From Escherichia phage vB_EcoM_G2540-3, in sequence record MK327944.1: a stretch of DNA of 64,000 bases; one strand, written 5' to 3'. Positions within the stretch are counted from its first letter, which is position 1, and every line of letters begins with the position of its first letter. Both the position numbers and the translations under genes were made by a program. A model generated the notes under the pieces. That model saw only the letters and a list, made by a program, of their open reading frames with translations, was not told the origin of the DNA and searched no databases. Below are positions 1-42,969 of the stretch, one piece after another.

Positions 1-2178
1 TTAGGCCGCAAGGGCCTTCATAGTTTTAGCGATTTGGGAGACTTCATCATCACTTAAAGAGTTGCGATAACCGATGAAGTCGGAAACAATACGGAATTTC
101 TTGGTAAACTCAGCAACCATTTTATCACTGTTTTTTGAAGCATTATTTGATAATACATCAAAAAGATTAGTTACTGTCCAGATGTCATGACCGATGGTAT
201 CTTTTCCACCATTAAAATATACACCGCGCAATGAACTAACTATATTAGCGAGTCGTGTATATTCTTCAGAAACTTCATCTGTACTGAAGTACTTCATCAT
301 AAAATCTAGTTCAGGATACTTGATAATTTTATCAATATATCGTTGAGCTGAACTTGAATAACCTACGTACTTATCATAATCTACATCATCAAAAGCATCT
401 ACATATAAATCACGCAGAGTTTCAAAAATACATTGGCACTGACCGAGTTCTTTTACCTTTTTCTGCAAAAGCGGACGAATAACATAAAACTCATTAATGC
501 CAATAAGATTAGCCATACGAATCAAAATATTCATAGATGGATGACAAAGAGATGTAGTACCATCCATAGAGAAAATATCAGAACGATGCATATACGCTAC
601 ATACCCAGTAATTTCATCTGCTTCTGATGTGAGCGTAAATAATTCCTCTTTTTCCCAGCGCCCGTCTTTAATTTCAAACTTAAATGCTGTAGCAGCTTTA
701 GGACGAGGAGCTTTACTTTTAACTACCTTTGGAATATAGCTTTTAACTAAAGCTTCAATTTCTGACAAATAATGAATGTTAACTTCATCACTTTCAAACA
801 TCGCCATAATATCAGGAAGCAAATCAATCTGCGATTCTACTTCTGGATTAATAAACAGAAGGCGTTCGTTGTGATGAATATTCAAAGTGTTATTAAATTC
901 ACTATCATCTAACGCATGTGCTAATCCACGGACAATATTAACACGATTTTTAATATTATCAATAACGATATTAATTTTTGTTGCATTAATACCAAACAGA
1001 CGATAACTTGATGCAACGGCTGAAGTTTCATGACTTTGCTTAATGCGCTTCAGTCGAGGGTCAAGATTTACTTCATACACAACTCCTGCATTGCATAACT
1101 TACTGTCAGGTTCAAACATGCTCTGCATCTTTTTATATGACAGATTTTTAGTCGTAAATTTGACTGAATTACTAATCATATAATCTCGAGCAGAATACCC
1201 CATCTTCATCAATTCACGATATGTATGACGGGGAGATGTGGATTCTTTAAATCGTTTTACATCTTCATTAAATGCTTTCTCACTGAGTTCTTTAACTCGT
1301 TCAATAATATTTTTACGAGTACGATCATCCAGTGAAAGAGCCTCGCGAGATGGAGCAATATCAAGTGAACCCATTGGAAACTTAATGTAATTCACTTCAT
1401 TGCGAATGCTTAGCCAGTTACGGTCTCTAATAACACCATCGATAGGATAAACAATACCGCCATAGATAGCATATAATCCACCACGATCAGGCCAGTATCT
1501 TTCTGGATTTACACCGTAATAGTCATTAAAATCCGGAAAATAATCAATTTCGCGGTCAAGACCATTAATGATAGCCAAATCTTTGAATGGTCGCATGATA
1601 TAAGAAACTTCATAAGCAAAGTTTCTAAAGTCTTTTTCTTCAACTGGAACTACGATTTCAATACCAGTTTTATCATCTGGACCCATTTCTTTTACGAATG
1701 TAGGTTTAATCTGCGGACCGTCACCATCCATGTAAGCTACATAACCACGAATTTCGCCTTTATGATATGAAGTAATACTAAATGTATCAGTATAACTAAA
1801 CGGAGATTTAGAACCTAAACCAAATCCACCAATGAAATCGTTAGATTCAGCCTTAGATGAACTGAAGTATGAATTATACAACCCAGGAGAATTATCATCA
1901 CCCTGAATATCAAAATCGCTCATACCCGGACCAAAATCTCGACAAACAAATCGCGGATCTAATCGTCCTGGAACTTGTATGATAAATTTTTCAGGATTTC
2001 CATTAAGTGCATGGGCATCAATCATATTAGTAATTAATTCACGGACTACTGCACGAATCTTGTTTGTATACAAATCAGATGACAGAATTTTAAATACTTT
2101 AGGAGATGCTGTGATGCTAAATGCTTTTGATTTAGAACCATTGCCAAGAATTGTTTCTTTTTCAGTGGTGATAATCAT
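1..2178 (-). CDS. rIIA: rIIA protein, 725 aa (rapid-lysis / Rex-exclusion locus; N-terminal GHKL-type ATPase-like region)
   Basis: Complete 725-aa ORF with stop at 1-3; length and position beside rIIA.1 and gene 39 match T4 rIIA; N-box-like motif [11 protein letters not shown]. Confidence 0.85.
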
Positions 2179-2188
2179 AATTTCCTCA

Positions 2189-2392
2189 TTAATTCATATT
2201 ACGCTTAATAACTTCAGCAACTTCTAGTAATTCATCTTTAGTTGCAGTGTCGGATTGAATTTTATCTCTAATATCTTTAAAGCGGTTTTTAAATTCTTCG
2301 GCTTCTCCCATATCGAAAAAGCGTTGAATGATTCTATATTCTCGATGAACTGCTTTATCAAAAAGTTCTAAATTTACTTTATATGATTTCAT
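2189..2392 (-). CDS. rIIA.1-like small protein, 67 aa
   Basis: Small ORF immediately upstream of rIIA, in the position of T4 rIIA.1; early promoter directly upstream. Confidence 0.55.
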
Positions 2393-2417
2393 TTCAATAT
2401 CCTCATTTGCCCAATTA

Positions 2418-2447
2418 ATTATACCACATCCTTGTGGTAAAGTAAAC
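2418..2447 (-). promoter_or_regulatory. T4-type early promoter (before rIIA.1 and rIIA)
   Basis: Minus strand GTTTAC, 18-nt spacer, TGGTATAAT. Confidence 0.65.
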
Positions 2448-4267
2448 TACTGGCTCATCCATTCTTTACGAAGGTCAGCATTATCTCCCATGAGCATTTC
2501 AAAAAGCTCTTTCCAGTTCTCAGGAAGTTTAACAACATCATATACTGGATTTTGAATCATCTCACGATATTCAGATTTTTCCAAAGAGCCAAGTCCTTTA
2601 ATATAACGGATGCTATGTTTAGGTAGAGCATCTTTAGCACTCTCATATTCAGCGACTGTATAAAACCATTCTTGTTTTTTACCAATCTGTGCGATGATTA
2701 CAGGAGTTTTGACAAAGCGAATTCGTCCTTGCTCAAACAGTTCTGGCCAATTACTAAAAAATCCAAGCAGAGAAGGATAAATGCTTCCTAGACCATCATG
2801 GTCAGCATCAGTCATAATAGCAATATTATGATAATTCAAGTTTTCAGCTTTTTCACCGAGAACTAATCCAGTGATTGCGCAAATATCAAACAGTTCTTTG
2901 TTTTTAAGCATGTCAGCATATGACATACCCCAACTGTTGAGAACTTTACCACGTAATGGATAACCACCGTGAAGTTCTTTATCACGAACATCAATAAGAT
3001 ATCCGATAGCCGAATCACCCTCAGTCAAGAAAAGAGTAGTATCAGCATCTTTACCACAAAGATTCGCTTTAATATGTTTATGAACCTTAGCTTTAGAAGC
3101 CTTTTTAGCTGCTTTAGTTTCTGCTGCTTTTTCTGCCGCTAATTTACGAGCCAAAGCAGCTTCAATAATCGGCATTAGAATTGCTTCATTATTTAGAATA
3201 GCACGTGAAATCTTTTTAGCATCAAGTTGAATATGACTACGGATTTCACCAAATGGAGAAGTCAAACGCTCTTTAGTTTGAGAATCAAATCGCATGTTTT
3301 TCATATCACGGACAAACATAACGATAGTCAAACATTCTTTAACGCGTGCTTTAGTCACATCAATTTTGAACTTACGTTTGATTTGTGGAATAAGGTCTTC
3401 ACAAATATCATCCATAACACAGTCAATGTGATGGCCACCATTCTTAGTGTGAATGTTATTCACATAAGTTAATTGACGAAAACCATCCGGTGAACGACCA
3501 ACCGCAATAGAGCAATTTTCTTGTTCTTGAACGATAGCATGCTCATCATATTGGCGTGCATATTTCTTAAAATTGCCCTGAACCTTTTTACCATTAAAGG
3601 TAAATTGAATATCAGGATAAACTACTGCAAGTGTCTGGAGACGATCTAGTGTAATGTCAAGATAAACTTGGGACAGCTCATTAGTTTCAAATGACATAAA
3701 ATCAGGAATGAAAGTAACGCGAGTTCCTTTCCATTTTCCTGGAATAGTTTCCCATGATTTATTTTCCATGCCATTTGAACAACGAACTACAATATTATTT
3801 TGACCATCACCAGTTTCACCGACAAACATCACAGAAAAAATGTTTGTCAAACTAGAACCAACACCATTCATACCACCGGTGACGCGTTCTTTATCATCAC
3901 CGAAGTTACCACCTGCTTTTGGAATAGTCCAGGCAGCAACAGGACCAGGAATTTCTTCACCAGTAGGTGTTTTGACCATCGCTTGTGGAATACCGCGACC
4001 GTTATCTTCAACTGTTACTTGATTGTTTTTAATAGTAATATTAATTTTATTTGCGAATTTAAACTTAGTACGAATACCTTCATCTACTGAGTTATCGATA
4101 ATTTCATCAATAAGCTTAACAAGACCAGGTACATACTGAACACTTTCCCATTTACCAAACAGAAAGCGCTCATGCATTTCATTAGCAGAAGAGCCAATAT
4201 ACATGCCGCTACGCTTTTTGATATGTTCAATATCGCTCAGAATTTTAATTTCATTCTTAATCATCAC
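2447..4267 (-). CDS. 39: DNA topoisomerase II large subunit gp39 (GyrB-like ATPase) with gp60-equivalent region fused, 606 aa
   Basis: GHKL ATPase motifs (IIDNSVDEG, EDNGRGIP) and TOPRIM-like region; a single 606-aa ORF equals T4 gp39 plus gp60, as in T2/T6. Confidence 0.9.
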   Translation of the reverse strand: MMIKNEIKILSDIEHIKKRSGMYIGSSANEMHERFLFGKWESVQYVPGLVKLIDEIIDNSVDEGIRTKFKFANKINITIKNNQVTVEDNGRGIPQAMVKTPTGEEIPGPVAAWTIPKAGGNFGDDKERVTGGMNGVGSSLTNIFSVMFVGETGDGQNNIVVRCSNGMENKSWETIPGKWKGTRVTFIPDFMSFETNELSQVYLDITLDRLQTLAVVYPDIQFTFNGKKVQGNFKKYARQYDEHAIVQEQENCSIAVGRSPDGFRQLTYVNNIHTKNGGHHIDCVMDDICEDLIPQIKRKFKIDVTKARVKECLTIVMFVRDMKNMRFDSQTKERLTSPFGEIRSHIQLDAKKISRAILNNEAILMPIIEAALARKLAAEKAAETKAAKKASKAKVHKHIKANLCGKDADTTLFLTEGDSAIGYLIDVRDKELHGGYPLRGKVLNSWGMSYADMLKNKELFDICAITGLVLGEKAENLNYHNIAIMTDADHDGLGSIYPSLLGFFSNWPELFEQGRIRFVKTPVIIAQIGKKQEWFYTVAEYESAKDALPKHSIRYIKGLGSLEKSEYREMIQNPVYDVVKLPENWKELFEMLMGDNADLRKEWMSQ

Positions 4268-4316
4268 TTATCCTCGTTTGGTTTCGGGAATATTATACTC
4301 CGGTAATCATAAAGCT

Positions 4317-4334
4317 AAAGGCCCGAAGGCCTTT
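4317..4334 (-). other. intercistronic UUCG-tetraloop hairpin before gene 39
   Basis: Minus RNA AAAGGCC-UUCG-GGCCUUU overlapping the upstream stop codon. Confidence 0.55.
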
Positions 4335-4603
4335 TATTTAAAACGAATAGTCGAATCCTTGAAGAATAGTCCAGAACATACTGTTCCTTCTACTTTCTGC
4401 CCAGTAGGTCCAATAGCACGAAATCCAGTATGCTGGAAATCATTTTCAGAGCAACCGAACCAATTATATCCAGTGATTTCAATATTAGTAAAACCACTTG
4501 AAGACAAAACTTTGGTTGCATTATCAGCATCAGTACATCCTATTAAAGACACTGCTAATACTAATGCTGCGATAGAACGATTAATATATTTCATAATTTT
4601 CAC
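4334..4603 (-). CDS. putative lipoprotein, 89 aa
   Basis: Signal peptide followed by lipobox LIGC (MKIMKYINRSIAALVLAVSLIGC). Confidence 0.55.
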   Translation of the reverse strand: MKIMKYINRSIAALVLAVSLIGCTDADNATKVLSSSGFTNIEITGYNWFGCSENDFQHTGFRAIGPTGQKVEGTVCSGLFFKDSTIRFK

Positions 4604-4971
4604 TTAAATTTAATGGCTTGAAGAAGACTAATAATTCTCAAGCGACTTCCTTCATCTTTAACTGTAAAAGAAAGAGGGTCACCAGATTTCATAGTGATAG
4701 TGCATTCAAAAGCAAAACCTTCGGGAACTTCTTCGAAGAAGTCAAATTCTTCATCATAAATTAGAACATTACTCTGAAAACTGTGAAGAATTTTTCCGTC
4801 ATTTCCAGATGCTGTACTAATCATTGTAACATTATTACCTTTCATATCTTCAACGATAAATTCGCTTGTAGATATTACAGCATTAATAGAACCATTCCTA
4901 TAAATAGCAGAAAATAGATATTTCTTTTCTTCACCTTCGCGAATGCGATATTTCTTACCGATTTTAAACAT
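4600..4971 (-). CDS. hypothetical early protein, 123 aa
   Basis: ORF in the tightly packed minus-strand early array; start overlaps upstream stop. Confidence 0.5.
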   Translation of the reverse strand: MFKIGKKYRIREGEEKKYLFSAIYRNGSINAVISTSEFIVEDMKGNNVTMISTASGNDGKILHSFQSNVLIYDEEFDFFEEVPEGFAFECTITMKSGDPLSFTVKDEGSRLRIISLLQAIKFK

Positions 4972-4973
4972 AA

Positions 4974-5150
4974 TTACCCTTTAAGTAAGTCGTAAAATCC
5001 GCCATTCACATGCTTAGGGGCAGAGACTAACCGAATAGCAATCCGATGACAATCAGGACATACATCAGTATCTCTTTCAGAAATTTTCTTGATTTTTTCG
5101 TATTCTTTTGCGCAGTCTTTTGATTGACATTTATAATCATAAAGCGGCAT
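4974..5150 (-). CDS. FmdB-type zinc-ribbon small protein, 58 aa (below ORF-track cutoff)
   Basis: MPLYDYKCQSKDC...CPDCHR pattern; RBS AAGGAA 5 nt before ATG at 5150; fills the gap between flanking genes. Confidence 0.5.
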   Translation of the reverse strand: MPLYDYKCQSKDCAKEYEKIKKISERDTDVCPDCHRIAIRLVSAPKHVNGGFYDLLKG

Positions 5151-5152
5151 AA

Positions 5153-5566
5153 TTATTCCTTAAAGTGAGCTTTCAACATCTGATACAAGGACCATGCCTG
5201 TTCATCATTTTCAATAGTAACTTTCATTACAGGGAATTTAGATTGATCAGTTATCGGTGCAGATTCTTCCTGCTCTTCAGCTGCCTGGTATGGATTTTCA
5301 ACTTCATTAAAGAATTCAGCTTCATTCGATGAAAGCCAAATAAAATCTTCATCCAAAATATCTTTACCAGAAGATAGTACTAAATTTCCAGCAAATGACA
5401 TAATTTTAATAGGACGCCCAAGAGCATCCACATCTAAAATTTTAAAAGGATGCATACCTAAACGGCGTGCATAGATTCCGTTATCAGTATGGTCTTTAAT
5501 AAAATTTTCTTGAGCTTGTTTATTTTTAAACTGATACCATTTATTAACTTCAAATTTAATAGCCAT
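5153..5566 (-). CDS. hypothetical early protein, 137 aa (occupies the T4 goF position by synteny)
   Basis: ORF only; the synteny-based name is a guess. Confidence 0.5.
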
Positions 5567-5781
5567 TAATAAATTTCCTTCCAGTAAGTTGTACCATCTT
5601 CAGTGATTTCACGAAATACACCGTAAATTGGTTGTTTATCCCCAACCTTTTCATACACATAAACCGAAGTCAAGTGAGTAAACTTAGCAGTGTGTTCCTT
5701 TTGAACTACTACCAAATCTGGATCGAATAACACATCTTCAAATTCGTCATTAGTGCAGTTCTGAACAATTTTACGTTTCAT
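5566..5781 (-). CDS. hypothetical early protein, 71 aa (occupies the T4 cef position by synteny)
   Basis: ORF with RBS GAGGAAA; same size as T4 cef but not verified. Confidence 0.5.
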
Positions 5782-5953
5782 TACAATTTCCTCGTTAATT
5801 GAACATTGGAGCGATGCGTTTCAGAAGAGTAGCAGCACCTTTGGCAAATTTTCCATTTTATTCTCCAAATTATTTTCTATATCAGTAGTTGATATTGATA
5901 TAGTACCATAATCAACTACTGATGTATATAGTTTTATGAAAAAATTTTAAACT

Positions 5954-6445
5954 TTATGCATAGCGAGCTTTGCTGTAGTGTTTAATCCAACTTTCAGGAA
6001 TGACTTTGTATGTTCCTAAAAATACCGCGTTGTATAACTTAACGCCATCTTCTACCCATTGATCAGTAATGTATGCACACATAGCGCGAGTACGCTGAGG
6101 AAGTGGTTGTCCACCTTCGGTAAATTCAAACTCATAAGGAGCAATGAACTTGATAGCTTGACCAAGTTTCCACTTAAAGTCTACACCTACATGCGAAGTA
6201 TCAATCGTTTCAATTCCTTTAGCAGGAACAGCTTTCAAAAACGCAGGCTCAAGAAATTTCCATCGAACATAACCAAACTGGGGCTTAGACATTCCATCTT
6301 TAGCAATGATACGTACTTTTACTTCAGAATCTTCATCTTTAACACCATGTTTAAGCTGAATGCTTACAACTTCGACCAATTTTCCTGCTGCTTTAGAACG
6401 GGATTTATCAGATACACGAGCAATTTCACCGATATTAATATTCAT
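5954..6445 (-). CDS. hypothetical early protein, 163 aa; paralogue of the disrupted gene at 6518..7066
   Basis: C-terminal segment AYITDQWVEDGVKLYNAVFLGTYKVIP resembles the out-of-frame segment of the neighbouring gene; early promoter at 6490..6519. Confidence 0.6.
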   Translation of the reverse strand: MNINIGEIARVSDKSRSKAAGKLVEVVSIQLKHGVKDEDSEVKVRIIAKDGMSKPQFGYVRWKFLEPAFLKAVPAKGIETIDTSHVGVDFKWKLGQAIKFIAPYEFEFTEGGQPLPQRTRAMCAYITDQWVEDGVKLYNAVFLGTYKVIPESWIKHYSKARYA

Positions 6446-6489
6446 AATTATCTCTCACTTGTTAAAAAGATTTTATACTCCACAGGACC

Positions 6490-6519
6490 ATTATACTCTG
6501 GTCCCAAGAGTTTGTAAAC
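6490..6519 (-). promoter_or_regulatory. T4-type early promoter
   Basis: Minus strand GTTTAC, 18 nt, TATAAT; upstream of 5954..6445. Confidence 0.6.
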
Positions 6520-7066
6520 TAGCTTAAACGAACATTAATCACTGCGCTACGAGGAACTACAGAGTATTCTCCAGCATGAACTACGTTCAGAAGTTCAACG
6601 CCATCTTCAATCCACTGGTCTGTTACCCAACCACAGATAGGATTATCAAAAGGACGACGGATAGACACAGCAGCACACAACAGGTCTGTAGGGTCTTGTT
6701 CTTCAACTTCTTGGAACAGGATGAACTCATCTTCATAAACCAGGTTTTCTTTATTTTGTTATTATCTAACCGGCGACCGTGGATGACGTAAGATTTGTCA
6801 AACCACTCACTTTTGGCAAATTCTTCAACAATAAATTCGCCTTCGCCAAAAACATCAGTCAGAGTTTTATGACCAGAAATCAAGGCATTAGTTTTAATTT
6901 TAGGTTCAACCAGTTTGTAGGTTTTGCCGATTTCAATAGCGGTAGTCATAATAGGTTCCTTAATTTCCAGTGGTTTAACAGGGCATACATAAGTGCTTAC
7001 AACATCAAAATCAATCAGTTTAGCTACCGGATTTGGTATGTATTCAGGATTATAATTAAATTTCAT
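6518..7066 (-). pseudogene. frameshifted paralogue of 5954..6445 (N-terminal part 6623..7066, C-terminal part in the -1 frame ending about 6518)
   Basis: Translating the -1 frame downstream of the A-rich run near 6745-6765 gives ...PICGWVTDQWIEDGVELLNVVHAGEYSVVPRSAVINVRLS, homologous to the C-terminus of 5954..6445. Confidence 0.5.
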
Positions 7067-7068
7067 AA

Positions 7069-7569
7069 TTATCTCATTTCAATAAAATCTACGAGTTCAG
7101 CATGCGATTTGCGGAACATTACTTGGTGCCCACCAATGATAACTTCATCTTCAGGAACTTCGTATACAGCGAGATAAAATCCTTTAGAAGATAATTCTTC
7201 CCGCTCTTCTCGTGTGAACCATCTCATCATATCATATTCACTAGCGAAAGCAAAATGATAAAGACCTATAAACCATCCTGGAATATGATATTCTACTCCA
7301 ACATAATCTTTCTTGAACTTAGTATTAATTACTATATTAGCGTTTTTAACTAATAGTTTATCTTCGTGTGGTAAAGGAATTCTTTTATTATTATCGCTAT
7401 GATGCATAAAATTAGGTCTGTCATAACCTACGTGTAATAGCCACTCTTCGCTCCATGAATCTATTATACTCCTGTACGGCGTTATTTGAACACAAAGATT
7501 TCGACGTATTGTTATAGCATCTTCATAATCAAGAATACTAAACGATGATTCAACACGATAAATTTTCAT
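7069..7569 (-). CDS. hypothetical early protein, 166 aa (occupies the T4 motB position by synteny)
   Basis: Start moved to internal ATG at 7569 with RBS GAGGA, so that the early promoter at 7597..7626 lies upstream. Confidence 0.5.
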   Translation of the reverse strand: MKIYRVESSFSILDYEDAITIRRNLCVQITPYRSIIDSWSEEWLLHVGYDRPNFMHHSDNNKRIPLPHEDKLLVKNANIVINTKFKKDYVGVEYHIPGWFIGLYHFAFASEYDMMRWFTREEREELSSKGFYLAVYEVPEDEVIIGGHQVMFRKSHAELVDFIEMR

Positions 7570-7596
7570 TTTATTATCCTCAGTAGCTATGGTGTT

Positions 7597-7626
7597 ATAA
7601 TACCACAACTAACCGAGGAAGTAAAC
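7597..7626 (-). promoter_or_regulatory. T4-type early promoter
   Basis: Minus strand GTTTAC, 18 nt, TATTAT; upstream of 7069..7569. Confidence 0.6.
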
Positions 7627-7632
7627 AACTTT

Positions 7633-8316
7633 TTATCGTTTTGTTGTAAGAGATAGAGGATCGCAATCTTCCTCTGACGGAGCATCTTCAAGACCCATAG
7701 CATATCGCAAAGCATACTTCATCATCAGAATATCTTTCGCACAGTCATGAATAGAATCATGCGCAACGAATCCATCTAAAGTTCCTTTTGGAAGAGGACA
7801 CGTGGTCATATCACGAACAAGCAGAAGTGCTTCAATTCTGGTACGAATATCACGCTGATTCCAGAATTTACATGGTTCTAACTTAAATGTGTCAAGCTCA
7901 TTCTCAGAAACACCATTAAGACGTTGAATATCACGAATGAGATCGACTAAAATTGGAAAATCAAACGACATTCCACGGCACCAGCCTTGAGATTTCCAAG
8001 GATCGATATTATGTGCATTGATGTAATCATTAAATTTTGCAATACCATCGATGGTGCTTACATCTTCATCTGATGGTGCAATATTTTTTCGAGCTTCAGG
8101 AGACTGATTTTTCCACCATTCGATAGTGCTTTTAGTAAAAAGACGATGTCCTTTTTGGCTTTTTAAATCAAATTTGATTTTAATGCCGCGTGAAACTAAT
8201 TCATCAAATGTTTCAACTACTTCTGGGTTAGGGTCAAAAGCAATTACAGCTAAATCAATAACAGCTGCTTTTTCACCACTTCCCATTGTTTCAAAATCTA
8301 TAATAAAATCAAACAT
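7633..8316 (-). CDS. dexA: exonuclease A (DexA), DEDDh 3'-5' exonuclease, 227 aa
   Basis: 227 aa with N-terminal MFDFIIDFETMG (exonuclease motif I) and a later HDSIHD motif; position before dda. Confidence 0.8.
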   Translation of the reverse strand: MFDFIIDFETMGSGEKAAVIDLAVIAFDPNPEVVETFDELVSRGIKIKFDLKSQKGHRLFTKSTIEWWKNQSPEARKNIAPSDEDVSTIDGIAKFNDYINAHNIDPWKSQGWCRGMSFDFPILVDLIRDIQRLNGVSENELDTFKLEPCKFWNQRDIRTRIEALLLVRDMTTCPLPKGTLDGFVAHDSIHDCAKDILMMKYALRYAMGLEDAPSEEDCDPLSLTTKR

Positions 8317-8591
8317 TAAATTTTCCTTGCTAAATCGCGAATTTGACCTACAGTATAGTCTTGAATATAAACTTTATTAATAGGTTCATCAATAAATTTT
8401 GCCATAGATTCAATATCTTTTTGCATCTCTTCAAGACTGTATATTATCTTTAAAGCTTTTTCGCGAATAGTAATATTTTCAGGACCAGAATTTTTCTCAA
8501 TGACAGCTTTAACATTTGTCATAAGAGATTTAAACTGACACCAACTTAATTCAATCATTAATAACCGCCTTATAAAGATGGCTAATTTCAC
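8316..8591 (-). CDS. hypothetical small protein, 91 aa (dexA.1 position)
   Basis: ORF only; start uncertain and overlaps the upstream gene. Confidence 0.45.
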   Translation of the reverse strand: MKLAIFIRRLLMIELSWCQFKSLMTNVKAVIEKNSGPENITIREKALKIIYSLEEMQKDIESMAKFIDEPINKVYIQDYTVGQIRDLARKI

Positions 8592-8811
8592 CTAAAATGT
8601 AATCACTGATTGTAACAGTTTTTACTTCACCACAAAAGAATTCTAACGCAATCAAATCTCGTTCGATTTCTTCCAATTGAAGCATTAACTTGCCTGATTC
8701 AGTTTTCACATTTTTGCGATTTTTGCTATAAGCTATTTCATAAATTTCGCTTACTTTATCTTGAAGAAGATAAAACTGATCTTTAGTTATTTCCACGAAT
8801 AGCTTCCTCAA
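8551..8811 (-). CDS. hypothetical small protein, 86 aa (dexA.2 position)
   Basis: ORF only. Confidence 0.45.
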   Translation of the reverse strand: MRKLFVEITKDQFYLLQDKVSEIYEIAYSKNRKNVKTESGKLMLQLEEIERDLIALEFFCGEVKTVTISDYILGEISHLYKAVIND

Positions 8812-8817
8812 ATTTAA

Positions 8818-10137
8818 TCATACATAAAATACATCATAACGACCACGGGTAACACCAACATAAAGAAGTTGTTGAGCTAATTCAGCATCTGCATAATGAA
8901 TACAAGGCGTATAAATGAAAGCACGGTCTACAGACATACCCTGAGCTTTATGGAATGTTGATGCAGGAAGTGCTTTCACTTTACTGAACTGTGATTTAGC
9001 ATCCCAAAAATCACTCCACGGAGCTTTTCCGCCTTTGTTCCAATTTTTATAAGTTTCTGCCGTTTTACCTAAAAATAGGTTAAACTTATATAGCTCTTCA
9101 TCAGATGAAATTATTTTAATCTTTTCACGATAATATTCATCATCGCCATAAGTTTCTACTGTTAAATCCCAATGACGAATTAAGTATTCTCCAGGAACAC
9201 CACGAGCTTTAACAAACGTTGATGTATACTCTGCTTCTATAATACGAACTAATTGTCCGTTATTAAAAATAATTTCTGATACAGGCTTTCCATCAATTTT
9301 ATATGTTTTAATTAATGGTTCCTGCATTACAATAATTTCACCGACAATAAAATCTTTATCAGTTTCAAAAATCTTTTTACGAATAATGCTATTTAACTTA
9401 TCAACAGATTTATTCGTAAATGCCATTACGCGATTTTCAAACAAATCATCTAGTGATTTTACGATTGAAAAATAATTTACCATAAAATCGCGTAAAGCGG
9501 TATCACCAATAAATCCACGTACTCCATGCCCGTCAACAATTTTATCATAAATCCACTTACCGTTACGAACGTCAGTAGCTACATCAATAATAGGAGCATT
9601 ACTGCGTTTAACTTCAGTGAGTTCGCACTGATAAAAATCTTTATGCGTAAAGAATGGACTGATATAAGCAGTATTTTCTCCTGGGTCAACAGGTCTAATT
9701 TGCTTATTATCCCCTATTCCAATTATAGTACACCAAGGTGGAATAGTTGAAAGCAGAATTTTAAATAGCTTTCTATCATACATTGACACTTCATCGCAGA
9801 TTAATACTCTGCATTTAGCTAAATCTGGTACTTCCTTCTGTTCAAAAAGAACATTTTCTTCATATGTTACTGGGTTAATTTTAAGAATACTATGAATAGT
9901 ACTTGCTTCTTTCCCTGATAGTTTTGAAAGAATCTTTTTAGCTGCATGAGTAGGAGCTGCTAAAATAATACCAGTTTCACCCGTAGATATTAAAGCTTCA
10001 ATGATGAACTTGGTAAGAGTAGTCTTACCAGTACCAGCAGGTCCATTAATAGTTACATGATGTTTCTTTTCTTTAATAGCCTTCATAACAATGTTAAAGG
10101 CATTTTTCTGGCCTTCGGTCAAATCATCAAATGTCAT
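8818..10137 (-). CDS. dda: Dda SF1B DNA helicase, 439 aa
   Basis: Walker A GPAGTGKTT, Walker B LICDEVSM; 439 aa as in T4 Dda. Confidence 0.9.
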   Translation of the reverse strand: MTFDDLTEGQKNAFNIVMKAIKEKKHHVTINGPAGTGKTTLTKFIIEALISTGETGIILAAPTHAAKKILSKLSGKEASTIHSILKINPVTYEENVLFEQKEVPDLAKCRVLICDEVSMYDRKLFKILLSTIPPWCTIIGIGDNKQIRPVDPGENTAYISPFFTHKDFYQCELTEVKRSNAPIIDVATDVRNGKWIYDKIVDGHGVRGFIGDTALRDFMVNYFSIVKSLDDLFENRVMAFTNKSVDKLNSIIRKKIFETDKDFIVGEIIVMQEPLIKTYKIDGKPVSEIIFNNGQLVRIIEAEYTSTFVKARGVPGEYLIRHWDLTVETYGDDEYYREKIKIISSDEELYKFNLFLGKTAETYKNWNKGGKAPWSDFWDAKSQFSKVKALPASTFHKAQGMSVDRAFIYTPCIHYADAELAQQLLYVGVTRGRYDVFYV

Positions 10138-17436: not shown

Positions 17437-18461
17437 ATCTTAGCATATTTAGATAACCGCATTTTAGCCATCAACCCCTGGGCGATATTATTTTTCATAT
17501 ATTCCATAATTTGTTCAGGGGTTGCACCTTCCTTTCTAATCATATCATTAACATCTTTTGATTTCCAGGGAGATTTATCCCAAAACATAACCCTTTCTCC
17601 TGCATCAACTAATTTAGTCATTCGTTTGATAGTGTCAGGATGACGAGGTTCATTATCTAAAACCCACACACGTCTATCTTTAAATGGAACAATTTCTAGG
17701 TCTAATTGACCGCCCGTAATAGCTATACCATTTTCAATAAAAAGTGAATCTATAGGTCCTTCTAGAACATATACATCGCCATCTTTAACTCGTTCAACAC
17801 CATAGATTTTTGTTGCCTCAGGATAAGCTTTGATGGTGATATATTTTTGAGGAGCATCTTTCTTTAATGCACGTCCTTGAAAAGACTCAGCTTTTCCATT
17901 AGCATTATAAATTGGAATAACAAGACGAGGCTCAGGTATTTCCTTTTTATATGTTCCTGGTGCTATACTATTAACTAATTTAGGCCATTCGGTTGTAAAC
18001 CAAAGATATTTCCATTTATCCTTTGGAATACAACGAGCTTTTACGTATTTTATAATTGGATGGTCTTCCGTCAGTTTATCTAATCTAATGCATGACGGAA
18101 GAGATTTAATTATTTTCTTCTCAGGTTGTTTAGGAAGTTCTTTAGGTTTTTCTACTGGACGACTTTTACCTTTTTCTTTTCTTATTTCAAAGATATACTC
18201 ACGATATAAATCAGGTTCAAACTCCTTTAAATATATTCCGATTGGTGCATGATAGTTACAGTTATAACAATGAATATTTCCTTCATTATTATCACCGTAA
18301 TACCATCCACGGGCTTTATTTTGGTCGGTTTTTGAATCTCCACAAACAGGGCATCTAAACCGTAATTTAAAAGTTGAACTATTATTTACTTGTGTGAATT
18401 TAGGTAAATGAGCTAGCGCACGATATGCAAACTCATTATCAATCCAAGGTATTGATGACAT
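17433..18461 (-). CDS. 61: DNA primase gp61, 342 aa
   Basis: Zinc ribbon CPVCGDS...CYNCNYH plus TOPRIM region; 342 aa as in T4. Confidence 0.9.
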   Translation of the reverse strand: MSSIPWIDNEFAYRALAHLPKFTQVNNSSTFKLRFRCPVCGDSKTDQNKARGWYYGDNNEGNIHCYNCNYHAPIGIYLKEFEPDLYREYIFEIRKEKGKSRPVEKPKELPKQPEKKIIKSLPSCIRLDKLTEDHPIIKYVKARCIPKDKWKYLWFTTEWPKLVNSIAPGTYKKEIPEPRLVIPIYNANGKAESFQGRALKKDAPQKYITIKAYPEATKIYGVERVKDGDVYVLEGPIDSLFIENGIAITGGQLDLEIVPFKDRRVWVLDNEPRHPDTIKRMTKLVDAGERVMFWDKSPWKSKDVNDMIRKEGATPEQIMEYMKNNIAQGLMAKMRLSKYAKI

Positions 18462-18627
18462 TTTTACTCTTCTTTTTCTTTAGATTCCTCTTTTTCTTTT
18501 TAGGAATCTGTTCAGGACCTTTATTTACTACAGCGCCTGACGTTGTTCCAGTAGAGATATTTTCAGGATTACCACCTGAATCTCCAGCTACCATATCTTC
18601 TTTGATAAATTCTTTATATGTTTTCAT
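18439..18627 (-). CDS. hypothetical basic small protein, 62 aa (61.1 position)
   Basis: ORF with RBS AGAGG; lysine-rich C-terminus. Confidence 0.45.
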   Translation of the reverse strand: MKTYKEFIKEDMVAGDSGGNPENISTGTTSGAVVNKGPEQIPKKKKRNLKKKKSKNVINTLD

Positions 18628-18650: not shown

Positions 18651-19256
18651 TTAAAAATTTGGGTCATCAATAGAAACTTTTACTTTAAACTGTTTTTCTG
18701 ATGGTAATTCATATCCGCATATTACAATTTTGTGATCAATATCAAAATACACAGAAGCAATATGATTAATGATGTTTTCAGTAAAGTCTAAATCAACCTC
18801 AATATCTTTTTGACCACAACCCAAAGGATAAATAATGCGAGTAATTCGATTATCTTTAACAAAGATTCCACCAATATACTCTGTGCTGCGTTTAAAGTCT
18901 ACGCGCCGCCGAAATGAAAAATATTCAGGCTCTTTATGAGCTCGGCTCATAGGACACAACGAATAACTAGAATAAGAGATGTCAAATCCTACACCTTCAA
19001 TATGAACTAAATTGTCATGATTAAACCAATTATAATCGTACGCCAAGTCCATTAGATTATAATATGTAAAAGGCACCGGATTAACATCACTAGTCACAAG
19101 CACGTAATTAGCAACTGCTATAATTTCGTTGTTTTTAACGAATACAAACCGCGATTGATGCGAATGACCTGGACCTGCGTTTTCACGATTAATGATATAA
19201 CACTGGGCACCTTTATATTTGTACGTGTCTTTGCACTTGTGCATTTGATAAAGCAT
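18651..19256 (-). CDS. hypothetical protein, 201 aa (61.2 position)
   Basis: ORF only; identity not verifiable from sequence. Confidence 0.5.
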   Translation of the reverse strand: MLYQMHKCKDTYKYKGAQCYIINRENAGPGHSHQSRFVFVKNNEIIAVANYVLVTSDVNPVPFTYYNLMDLAYDYNWFNHDNLVHIEGVGFDISYSSYSLCPMSRAHKEPEYFSFRRRVDFKRSTEYIGGIFVKDNRITRIIYPLGCGQKDIEVDLDFTENIINHIASVYFDIDHKIVICGYELPSEKQFKVKVSIDDPNF

Positions 19257-42729: not shown

Positions 42730-42969
42730 TTAAGCCTTTTTATCAAGAACAGCATTCAGCTTGTTAGTAATTTTATCCAGACGCTCATTGAATTCGCTAG
42801 AAGATAAGCCTTTTTCTGGAGAAATCAAACTAATCACGAAAAATATAGCAATAAAAGGAATAAGGAAAATAGCTCCAACTGCCATAAACAAAAAGAACGT
42901 TACGGTTGTAAGAAAATCAGCTAAACCTTTACGAAATTTATACATATTTACCCTTAATTGATTAACCAA
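42730..42969 (-). CDS. small membrane protein, 79 aa
   Basis: Central hydrophobic stretch FLTTVTFFLFMAVGAIFLIPFIAIFFVISL. Confidence 0.5.
   Translation of the reverse strand: MVNQLRVNMYKFRKGLADFLTTVTFFLFMAVGAIFLIPFIAIFFVISLISPEKGLSSSEFNERLDKITNKLNAVLDKKA

Follow-up and report, generated by a model that had tools for sequence, protein, structure and literature searches.

The DNA analyzed here (the window) is a stretch of 64,000 nucleotides from Escherichia phage vB_EcoM_G2540-3 (MK327944.1), and positions refer to this stretch unless another record is named. The 64-kb window is the left end of a Tequatrovirus (T4-like coliphage) genome and carries rIIA, gene 39, goF, cef, motB, dexA, and dda. 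Its gene order dexA - motB.2 - motB.1 - motB - cef - goF is identical to that of T4. The dexA exonuclease gene (7633..8316, minus strand) served as the synteny anchor. Next to it, a gene of 166 amino acids (7069..7569, minus strand) sits in the motB.2 slot of the dexA-to-cef early cluster, and its product is 90% identical to T4 MotB.2 and matches Pfam family PF26820. On the far side of the locus lies motB (5954..6445, minus strand), the downstream gene, encoding a protein of 163 amino acids that matches PF17613 over its full length (E = 5e-94) and whose orthologues in related phages carry the annotation MotB. Between these two genes is a minus-strand open reading frame (ORF) at 6623..7066, made up of 147 codons plus TAA, in which 107 native residues are followed by a 40-residue out-of-frame tail. 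A promoter-like site of the sigma-70/T4-early type, TTTACA-17-TATAAT (6490..6518, minus strand), with 11 of 12 consensus matches, lies directly downstream of the motB.1 stop codon, between motB.1 and motB, in a block that is conserved in T4. From its sequence, this near-consensus early-type promoter, reading from 6518 to 6490, would drive motB independently of motB.1.

The ORF at 6623..7066 is a homologue of phage T4 motB.1. As in T4, it belongs to a minus-strand early-gene cluster and occupies the slot between motB.2 and motB that marks the T4 MotB.1 family. The intact orthologue in phage ACG-C40 is annotated as "similar to T4 MotB.1," and T4 MotB.1 is 60% identical to the intact orthologue over 52 residues by BLASTP, in the C-terminal part only. 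The common C-terminal core reads DPTDLL...PF...GWVTDQWIEDGVELLNVVHAG, and the laboratory dispensability of T4 MotB.1 can be listed as a further likeness. There are also differences from the T4 protein. The N-terminal stretch of about 100 residues here has no detectable likeness to T4 MotB.1, the BLASTP match covering T4 residues 64 to 115 only, in line with the "distinct NTD" category described by Son et al. 2021 (PMC7827196). An N-terminal LSm-like fold has been predicted for T4 MotB.1 (Kim et al. 2025, PMC12152347), and BLASTP found no similarity between the N terminus here and that LSm-like/SH3-like beta-barrel, residues 1 to 82. Finally, the gene here, unlike that of T4, is broken by a 1-nt deletion, and the annotated product lacks the core.

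A single missing A splits motB.1

Alignment with near-identical relatives located the break. The window reads AAAGAAAACC, with a run of four A's (A4) at 6745-6748 (minus strand AAAG-AAAACC), where the relatives read AAAGAAAAACC, with five (A5). The missing A is a 1-nt deletion between codons 107 and 108, and it is the only DNA difference that accounts for the split. At the same place, phages Paracelsus, PYps35T, Ptacy1496, and ACG-C40 carry an intact single coding sequence (CDS) of 549 nt and 182 amino acids, and these relatives are 99.7 to 99.8% identical to the window; A5 was also found in two metagenome contigs. Members of the family typically have one continuous ORF of about 176 to 183 amino acids (143 in T4), nearly all of the 120 homologue clusters listed falling in the range of 176 to 183; here the deletion divides that frame in two. 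The last native residue of the truncated product is K107, and codons 108 to 147 are read out of frame (TWFMKMSSSCSKK...SVVG). The remainder of the gene persists in the -1 frame at 6522..6746 (minus strand) as MotB.1 residues 108 to 182 (NLVYEDEF...GWVTDQWIEDGVELLNVVHAGEYSVVPRSAVINVRLS), and the stretch that runs up to the TAG stop codon at 6519-6521 encodes ...NLVYEDEFILFQEVEEQDPTDLLCAAVSIRRPFDNPICGWVTDQWIEDGVELLNVVHAGEYSVVPRSAVINVRLS. This remnant has not decayed, with 0 substitutions in 226 nt relative to Paracelsus. The lesion must therefore be recent, since the out-of-frame sequence is still identical to that of intact orthologues. The annotations of G2540 and G2540-3 both list an identical 147-residue product (protein G25403_00010 in the latter).

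The sequence-only reading of this locus had proposed a tandem homologous pair in which a frameshift within an A-rich run breaks up the upstream copy, and the single A missing relative to the relatives bears this out. It had placed the frame change in a minus-strand stretch around 6745-6765, which contains the A4 run, and the conserved C terminus in the -1 frame with an end near 6518, in agreement with the TAG at 6519-6521. Its recommended alignment with orthologues gave A5 and a continuous gene of 182 amino acids in the relatives and A4 in the window. Its count of 148 N-terminal codons in 6623..7066 needs correction to 147 plus TAA; the description of that frame as running into junk sequence was accurate.

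Homology between MotB and MotB.1

The same reading took the genes at 5954..6445 and 7066 to be paralogues, with similar C-terminal segments, and this stands for the C-terminal module and not for the N-terminal halves, which have no detectable sequence similarity. BLASTP aligned 33 residues of MotB and intact MotB.1 at 52% identity (E = 2e-11), and profile comparison with hhalign matched MotB.1 residues 105 to 176 to MotB residues 98 to 154 with a probability of 96.9%. Pfam family PF17613 (motB) matches residues 140 to 176 of the intact (restored) MotB.1 with 36.7 bits, against a cutoff of 25. The C-terminal core that is common with MotB (PF17613 positions about 117 to 153) is thus present at the locus, but encoded in the -1 frame, and the 147-residue product as translated has no Pfam match. 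Judged from these sequence comparisons, the paralogy of MotB and MotB.1 is real but limited to a C-terminal module. A third paralogue was considered in motB.2 and rejected, as its product showed no similarity to MotB or MotB.1.

This relationship was already known, having been published for T4, where a shared C-terminal domain, differing N-terminal domains, and several N-terminal "categories" were described for MotB/MotB.1 (Son et al. 2021, PMC7827196). T4 MotB (PF17613) is a DNA-binding protein that copurifies with H-NS. It shares with MotB.1 a module of about 57 to 70 residues, the two genes being adjacent and on the same strand, whereas the N-terminal halves are unrelated at the sequence level.

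Predicted consequences for the MotB.1 protein

The C-terminal module is largely invariant. Among 23 homologues, 36 of the approximately 58 residues from D125 onward do not vary, and the invariant stretches include D125-L130, C145-W152, and V157-G166. In an AlphaFold2 (AF2) model of intact MotB.1, only residues 42 to 122 are predicted with confidence (pLDDT of 71 to 81). This part comprises four longer strands (49-52, 77-85, 92-99, and 104-111), a helix between the first two of them (60-73), and one short strand near its end (118-120); pLDDT falls below 50 for residues 124 to 182, so the C-terminal module has no usable model. The frameshift point falls inside the predicted strand 104-111. Because of the out-of-frame stop codon at 6623, the truncated product loses the entire MotB-like module (residues 105 to 176 of 182) and, on the predicted model, probably also lacks the edge of the folded core. 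The last 20 residues of the out-of-frame tail are strongly hydrophobic (TCCVLLCLSVVLLIILSVVG, mean Kyte-Doolittle value of 2.9; window positions 6623-6685) and, if the protein is made, might lead it to aggregate or to insert into a membrane.

Judged from sequence, A4 most likely acts as a null or strongly hypomorphic allele of motB.1. A null allele is somewhat unexpected, given that the largely invariant C-terminal module is normally under strong selection. Deletion of motB.1 from T4 leaves burst size and latent period normal (Kim et al. 2025, PMC12152347), and the A4 allele would be tolerated because the gene is dispensable in the laboratory. No polar effect on motB is expected, because motB would keep its own early promoter.

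Distribution of the A4 allele and the question of sequencing error

The window was compared with the genome of phage G2540 (MK327936.1), which was isolated from the same pig manure sample and on the same host as G2540-3 (Korf et al. 2019, PMC6563267). The two are 100% identical over 5900-7650, a region in which about 25 other phages are 99.3 to 99.8% identical to the window. Over positions 1-8818 they differ by 23 single-nucleotide polymorphisms (SNPs) and no gap, with 100% identity over 1919-8664. At 8818 the window lacks 232 bp that are present in MK327936.1, an ORF of 86 amino acids between dexA.2 and dda, and beyond that point identity is only about 95%; the published genome size of G2540-3 (MK327944), 168,654 bp, is likewise 232 bp smaller than that of G2540. 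The A4 run thus occurs in two clearly different genomes, inside an identical block of 6.7 kb.

The same deletion was found outside that study. Logan contig SRR28402351_152, whose phage shares 97.8% identity with the window, has it in a motB.1 gene that differs from that of the window by three SNPs; one neighboring gene is absent from this contig and motB.2 has a 3-nt indel, but all other genes are intact. The same frameshifted tail on a third amino acid background occurs in an 18-kb Logan contig (cluster member P0003). In a 28-kb Logan contig (P0004) the -1 frameshift is another one, a change from GG to G located four bases further downstream that gives KKNL/FMKM. Our literature search found no mention of the two SRA run numbers, and an exact-pattern scan of IMG/VR with 41/42-nt A4 and A5 contexts returned no match for either. 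A4 is found with at least three different sets of surrounding SNPs, so that the deletion must either be recurrent or have been moved by recombination within approximately 200 nt on each side.

These observations bear on whether the phage truly carries A5 and an intact motB.1 of 182 amino acids, the deposited sequence having dropped one A. The change is a 1-nt difference in homopolymer length with zero decay of the remnant, just as such an error would leave it. PacBio RSII was among the two platforms used in the study of G2540 and G2540-3 (PacBio RSII or Illumina; the paper and its supplements do not state the platform for each phage). The DNA of T4-type phages carries heavy modification. In the 212 phage records that share the 60-nt context, A4 occurs only in G2540, which comes from the same laboratory, and another odd 1-nt homopolymer allele of the window, GGG at 18661, is common only to G28, again from that laboratory. 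The legacy T4 reference, moreover, shows that 1-nt errors can persist in databases in motB.1 itself. A systematic error shared by the G2540 and G2540-3 assemblies may be possible, as the two phages share their laboratory, manure sample, and host, and a recurrent technical homopolymer error would give the same pattern of A4 on multiple backgrounds. Against this, the two genomes are different and were assembled separately at 410 to 537x coverage, A4 appears in independent public runs on contigs in which every other gene is intact, and four other phages of the same study with an identical 60-nt context read A5. Positions 1-8818 of the window contain 52 homopolymers of at least 5 nt, and the only gap relative to Ptacy1496 in these 8.8 kb is the one in the motB.1 A-run; every other run of 5 nt or more there has the same length as in the closest relative with an intact gene. 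With these points taken together, we consider a sequencing or consensus error possible but unlikely.

Translation of the split gene

The sequence-only reading had also raised ribosomal frameshifting, by which programmed or leaky -1 slippage would produce a full-length protein from the split gene alongside the truncated form. The shift that would be needed is indeed -1, and the site ...ATA AAG AAA ACC... contains A_AAG, a tetramer that is known to be shift prone in Escherichia coli. Just upstream, TAATAA marks the point after which the -1 frame is open, and a slip by tRNA-Lys on A_AAG would give I-K-E-N-L-V-Y, an almost wild-type protein, one residue off. The surroundings offer little else, however. 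The sequence ...AAC AAA ATA AAG AAA ACC... holds only this tetramer and no X XXY YYZ heptamer, no Shine-Dalgarno (SD)-like element is found upstream of the site, and the downstream 126 nt fold no better than shuffled sequences (minimum free energy of -19.9 kcal/mol, shuffle mean of -20.8, z = +0.28). Programmed -1 frameshifting of the dnaX and IS element type in E. coli has the same direction and the same A_AAG lysine codon context, but the present locus lacks the heptamer, the SD stimulator, and the downstream hairpin of such sites, and it is not conserved, its orthologues being in frame. In relatives of 99.8% identity the whole protein is read from one frame, and the same holds for essentially every one of the 120 homologue clusters listed, so the two-frame arrangement is not conserved. 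Decisively, because relatives differing by one base use a single frame, programmed frameshifting is effectively excluded, and we rate frameshifting of either kind as extremely unlikely to account for the locus. At most, unprogrammed leakiness could occur at the split site.

The two halves might alternatively act as separate polypeptides, the N-terminal domain from the upstream ORF and the C-terminal module from an ORF at 6519..6680. The latter has 53 codons with a TTG start and spans the C-terminal core, and a stand-alone peptide of 29 amino acids resembling the core is annotated in phage RB69 (PMC7827196). The C-terminal frame, however, has no ATG, no SD-like sequence precedes its TTG or GTG candidates, and the layout is one base away from intact genes. 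Translational coupling could not yield the complete module, because translation of the upstream ORF stops at 6623, which is already within the sequence coding for the C-terminal part. A functional split gene is thus hardly credible.

Other motB.1 variants and the T4 reference

The T4 reference sequence (NC_000866.4/AF158101.6) carries its own anomaly in motB.1. It reads GGATTGGAAGATGG where all G2540-type genes compared read GGATTGAAGATGG, and the extra G (GGATTGGAAG) truncates MotB.1 to 119 amino acids (...DQWIGRWR*). The site lies at 2078-2139 of the NC_000866.4-derived sequence, about 7277-7338 in T4, to be compared with window positions 6590-6650. Thirteen other records (11 T4/T4T records, RB55, and RB59) lack the extra G but match the 62-nt query at every other position, MotB.1 is annotated with 143 amino acids in T4T and MT984581, and removal of the G from the reference restores ...DQWIEDGVELLNVVHAGEYSVVPRSAVVAILN. 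Judged from these comparisons, the extra G probably reflects either an error in the legacy sequence or strain variation. It bears on motB.1 constructs based on NC_000866.4 (119 amino acids, 13.8 kDa); constructs designed from that record have been used, and a 13.8-kDa monomer was reported (Kim et al. 2025, PMC12152347).

Further interruptions were seen in single sequences. A Logan contig from SRR29999948 (5001-5540) has a different 1-nt frameshift upstream that leaves 99 amino acids, and the protein of phage FL12 (P0137) has 167 amino acids with an out-of-frame end, ...NVVHARRF. Broken copies of the gene thus turn up sporadically in databases; some reflect real variation, and others probably legacy error. 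Three homologue clusters (P0099, P0100, and P0131) contain proteins of 248 to 249 amino acids in which an N-terminal extension of about 70 residues is fused to the MotB.1 body.

Further differences were recorded elsewhere in the window. At 18651-18670 (site 18661) the window has GGG where almost all relatives have GG, which shifts the last 9 or so codons of a gene 61.2 homologue and gives a protein of 201 instead of 208 amino acids; the exact 60-mer around this site is common only to phage G28, from the same laboratory. At 18491-18494 the window differs by 1 nt from Ptacy1496 and G4498, and ACG-C40 matches the window; this difference is near the 3' end of a small 61.1-like ORF (18439..18627) and alters its C terminus. 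An isolated indel at 42947 is a common polymorphism, present in 74 records.

Discussion

We favor, with a probability of roughly 80%, a genuine replication-slippage null allele of the nonessential motB.1 gene over a sequencing artifact. The locus shows a 1-nt homopolymer length change that disrupts a domain conserved in intact orthologues. One A would have been lost from the A5 run of motB.1 by Streisinger-type replication slippage, a mechanism that we infer. Translation from the normal start at 7066 would then give 107 native and 40 junk residues up to the stop at 6623, and the MotB-like module would be lost, leaving a null or strongly hypomorphic allele that is presumably tolerated, with motB unaffected by virtue of its own promoter. 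Of the three options that the sequence-only reading had left side by side, a genuine pseudogene is therefore the best supported, because G2540 and independent assemblies also carry the A4 allele; a homopolymer sequencing error is less likely than a genuine allele, and ribosomal frameshifting lacks support, with relatives of 99.8% identity in frame and no stimulatory signals at the site.

Close parallels are the Streisinger-type mutations at T4 A-runs, with their classical hot spots in rII and lysozyme, which are likewise 1-nt changes in a short A-run; as in that class, the genome here is of the T4 type and the gene nonessential. In contrast to the classical cases, which come from laboratory selection, the present ones are natural isolates and assemblies, and the mechanism is one that would be read back from the alleles.

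A further reading is that loss of the MotB-like module is recurrent and selected, whether as a slippage on/off switch or as an escape from a host factor or defense, with leaky frameshifting on A_AAG possibly keeping a trace of full-length protein. On this reading, independent -1 frameshifts, A5 to A4 on at least three backgrounds and GG to G four bases downstream, all cut MotB.1 exactly where the homology to MotB begins. This apparent clustering at the boundary is, however, largely a matter of ascertainment, because a cluster built at 90% identity around the truncated protein was the source of these alleles, and we consider selected loss very unlikely.

We conclude that the allele favored above represents a commonplace slippage event in a known gene and is not a recoding signal. 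The 147-residue "hypothetical protein" of G2540 and G2540-3 in GenBank should be read as a frameshifted motB.1. As a low-frequency, probably null allele of a dispensable T4-type early gene, A4 carries little weight for biology at large, and natural isolates lacking the MotB-like module may offer ready-made mutants for studies of MotB.1.
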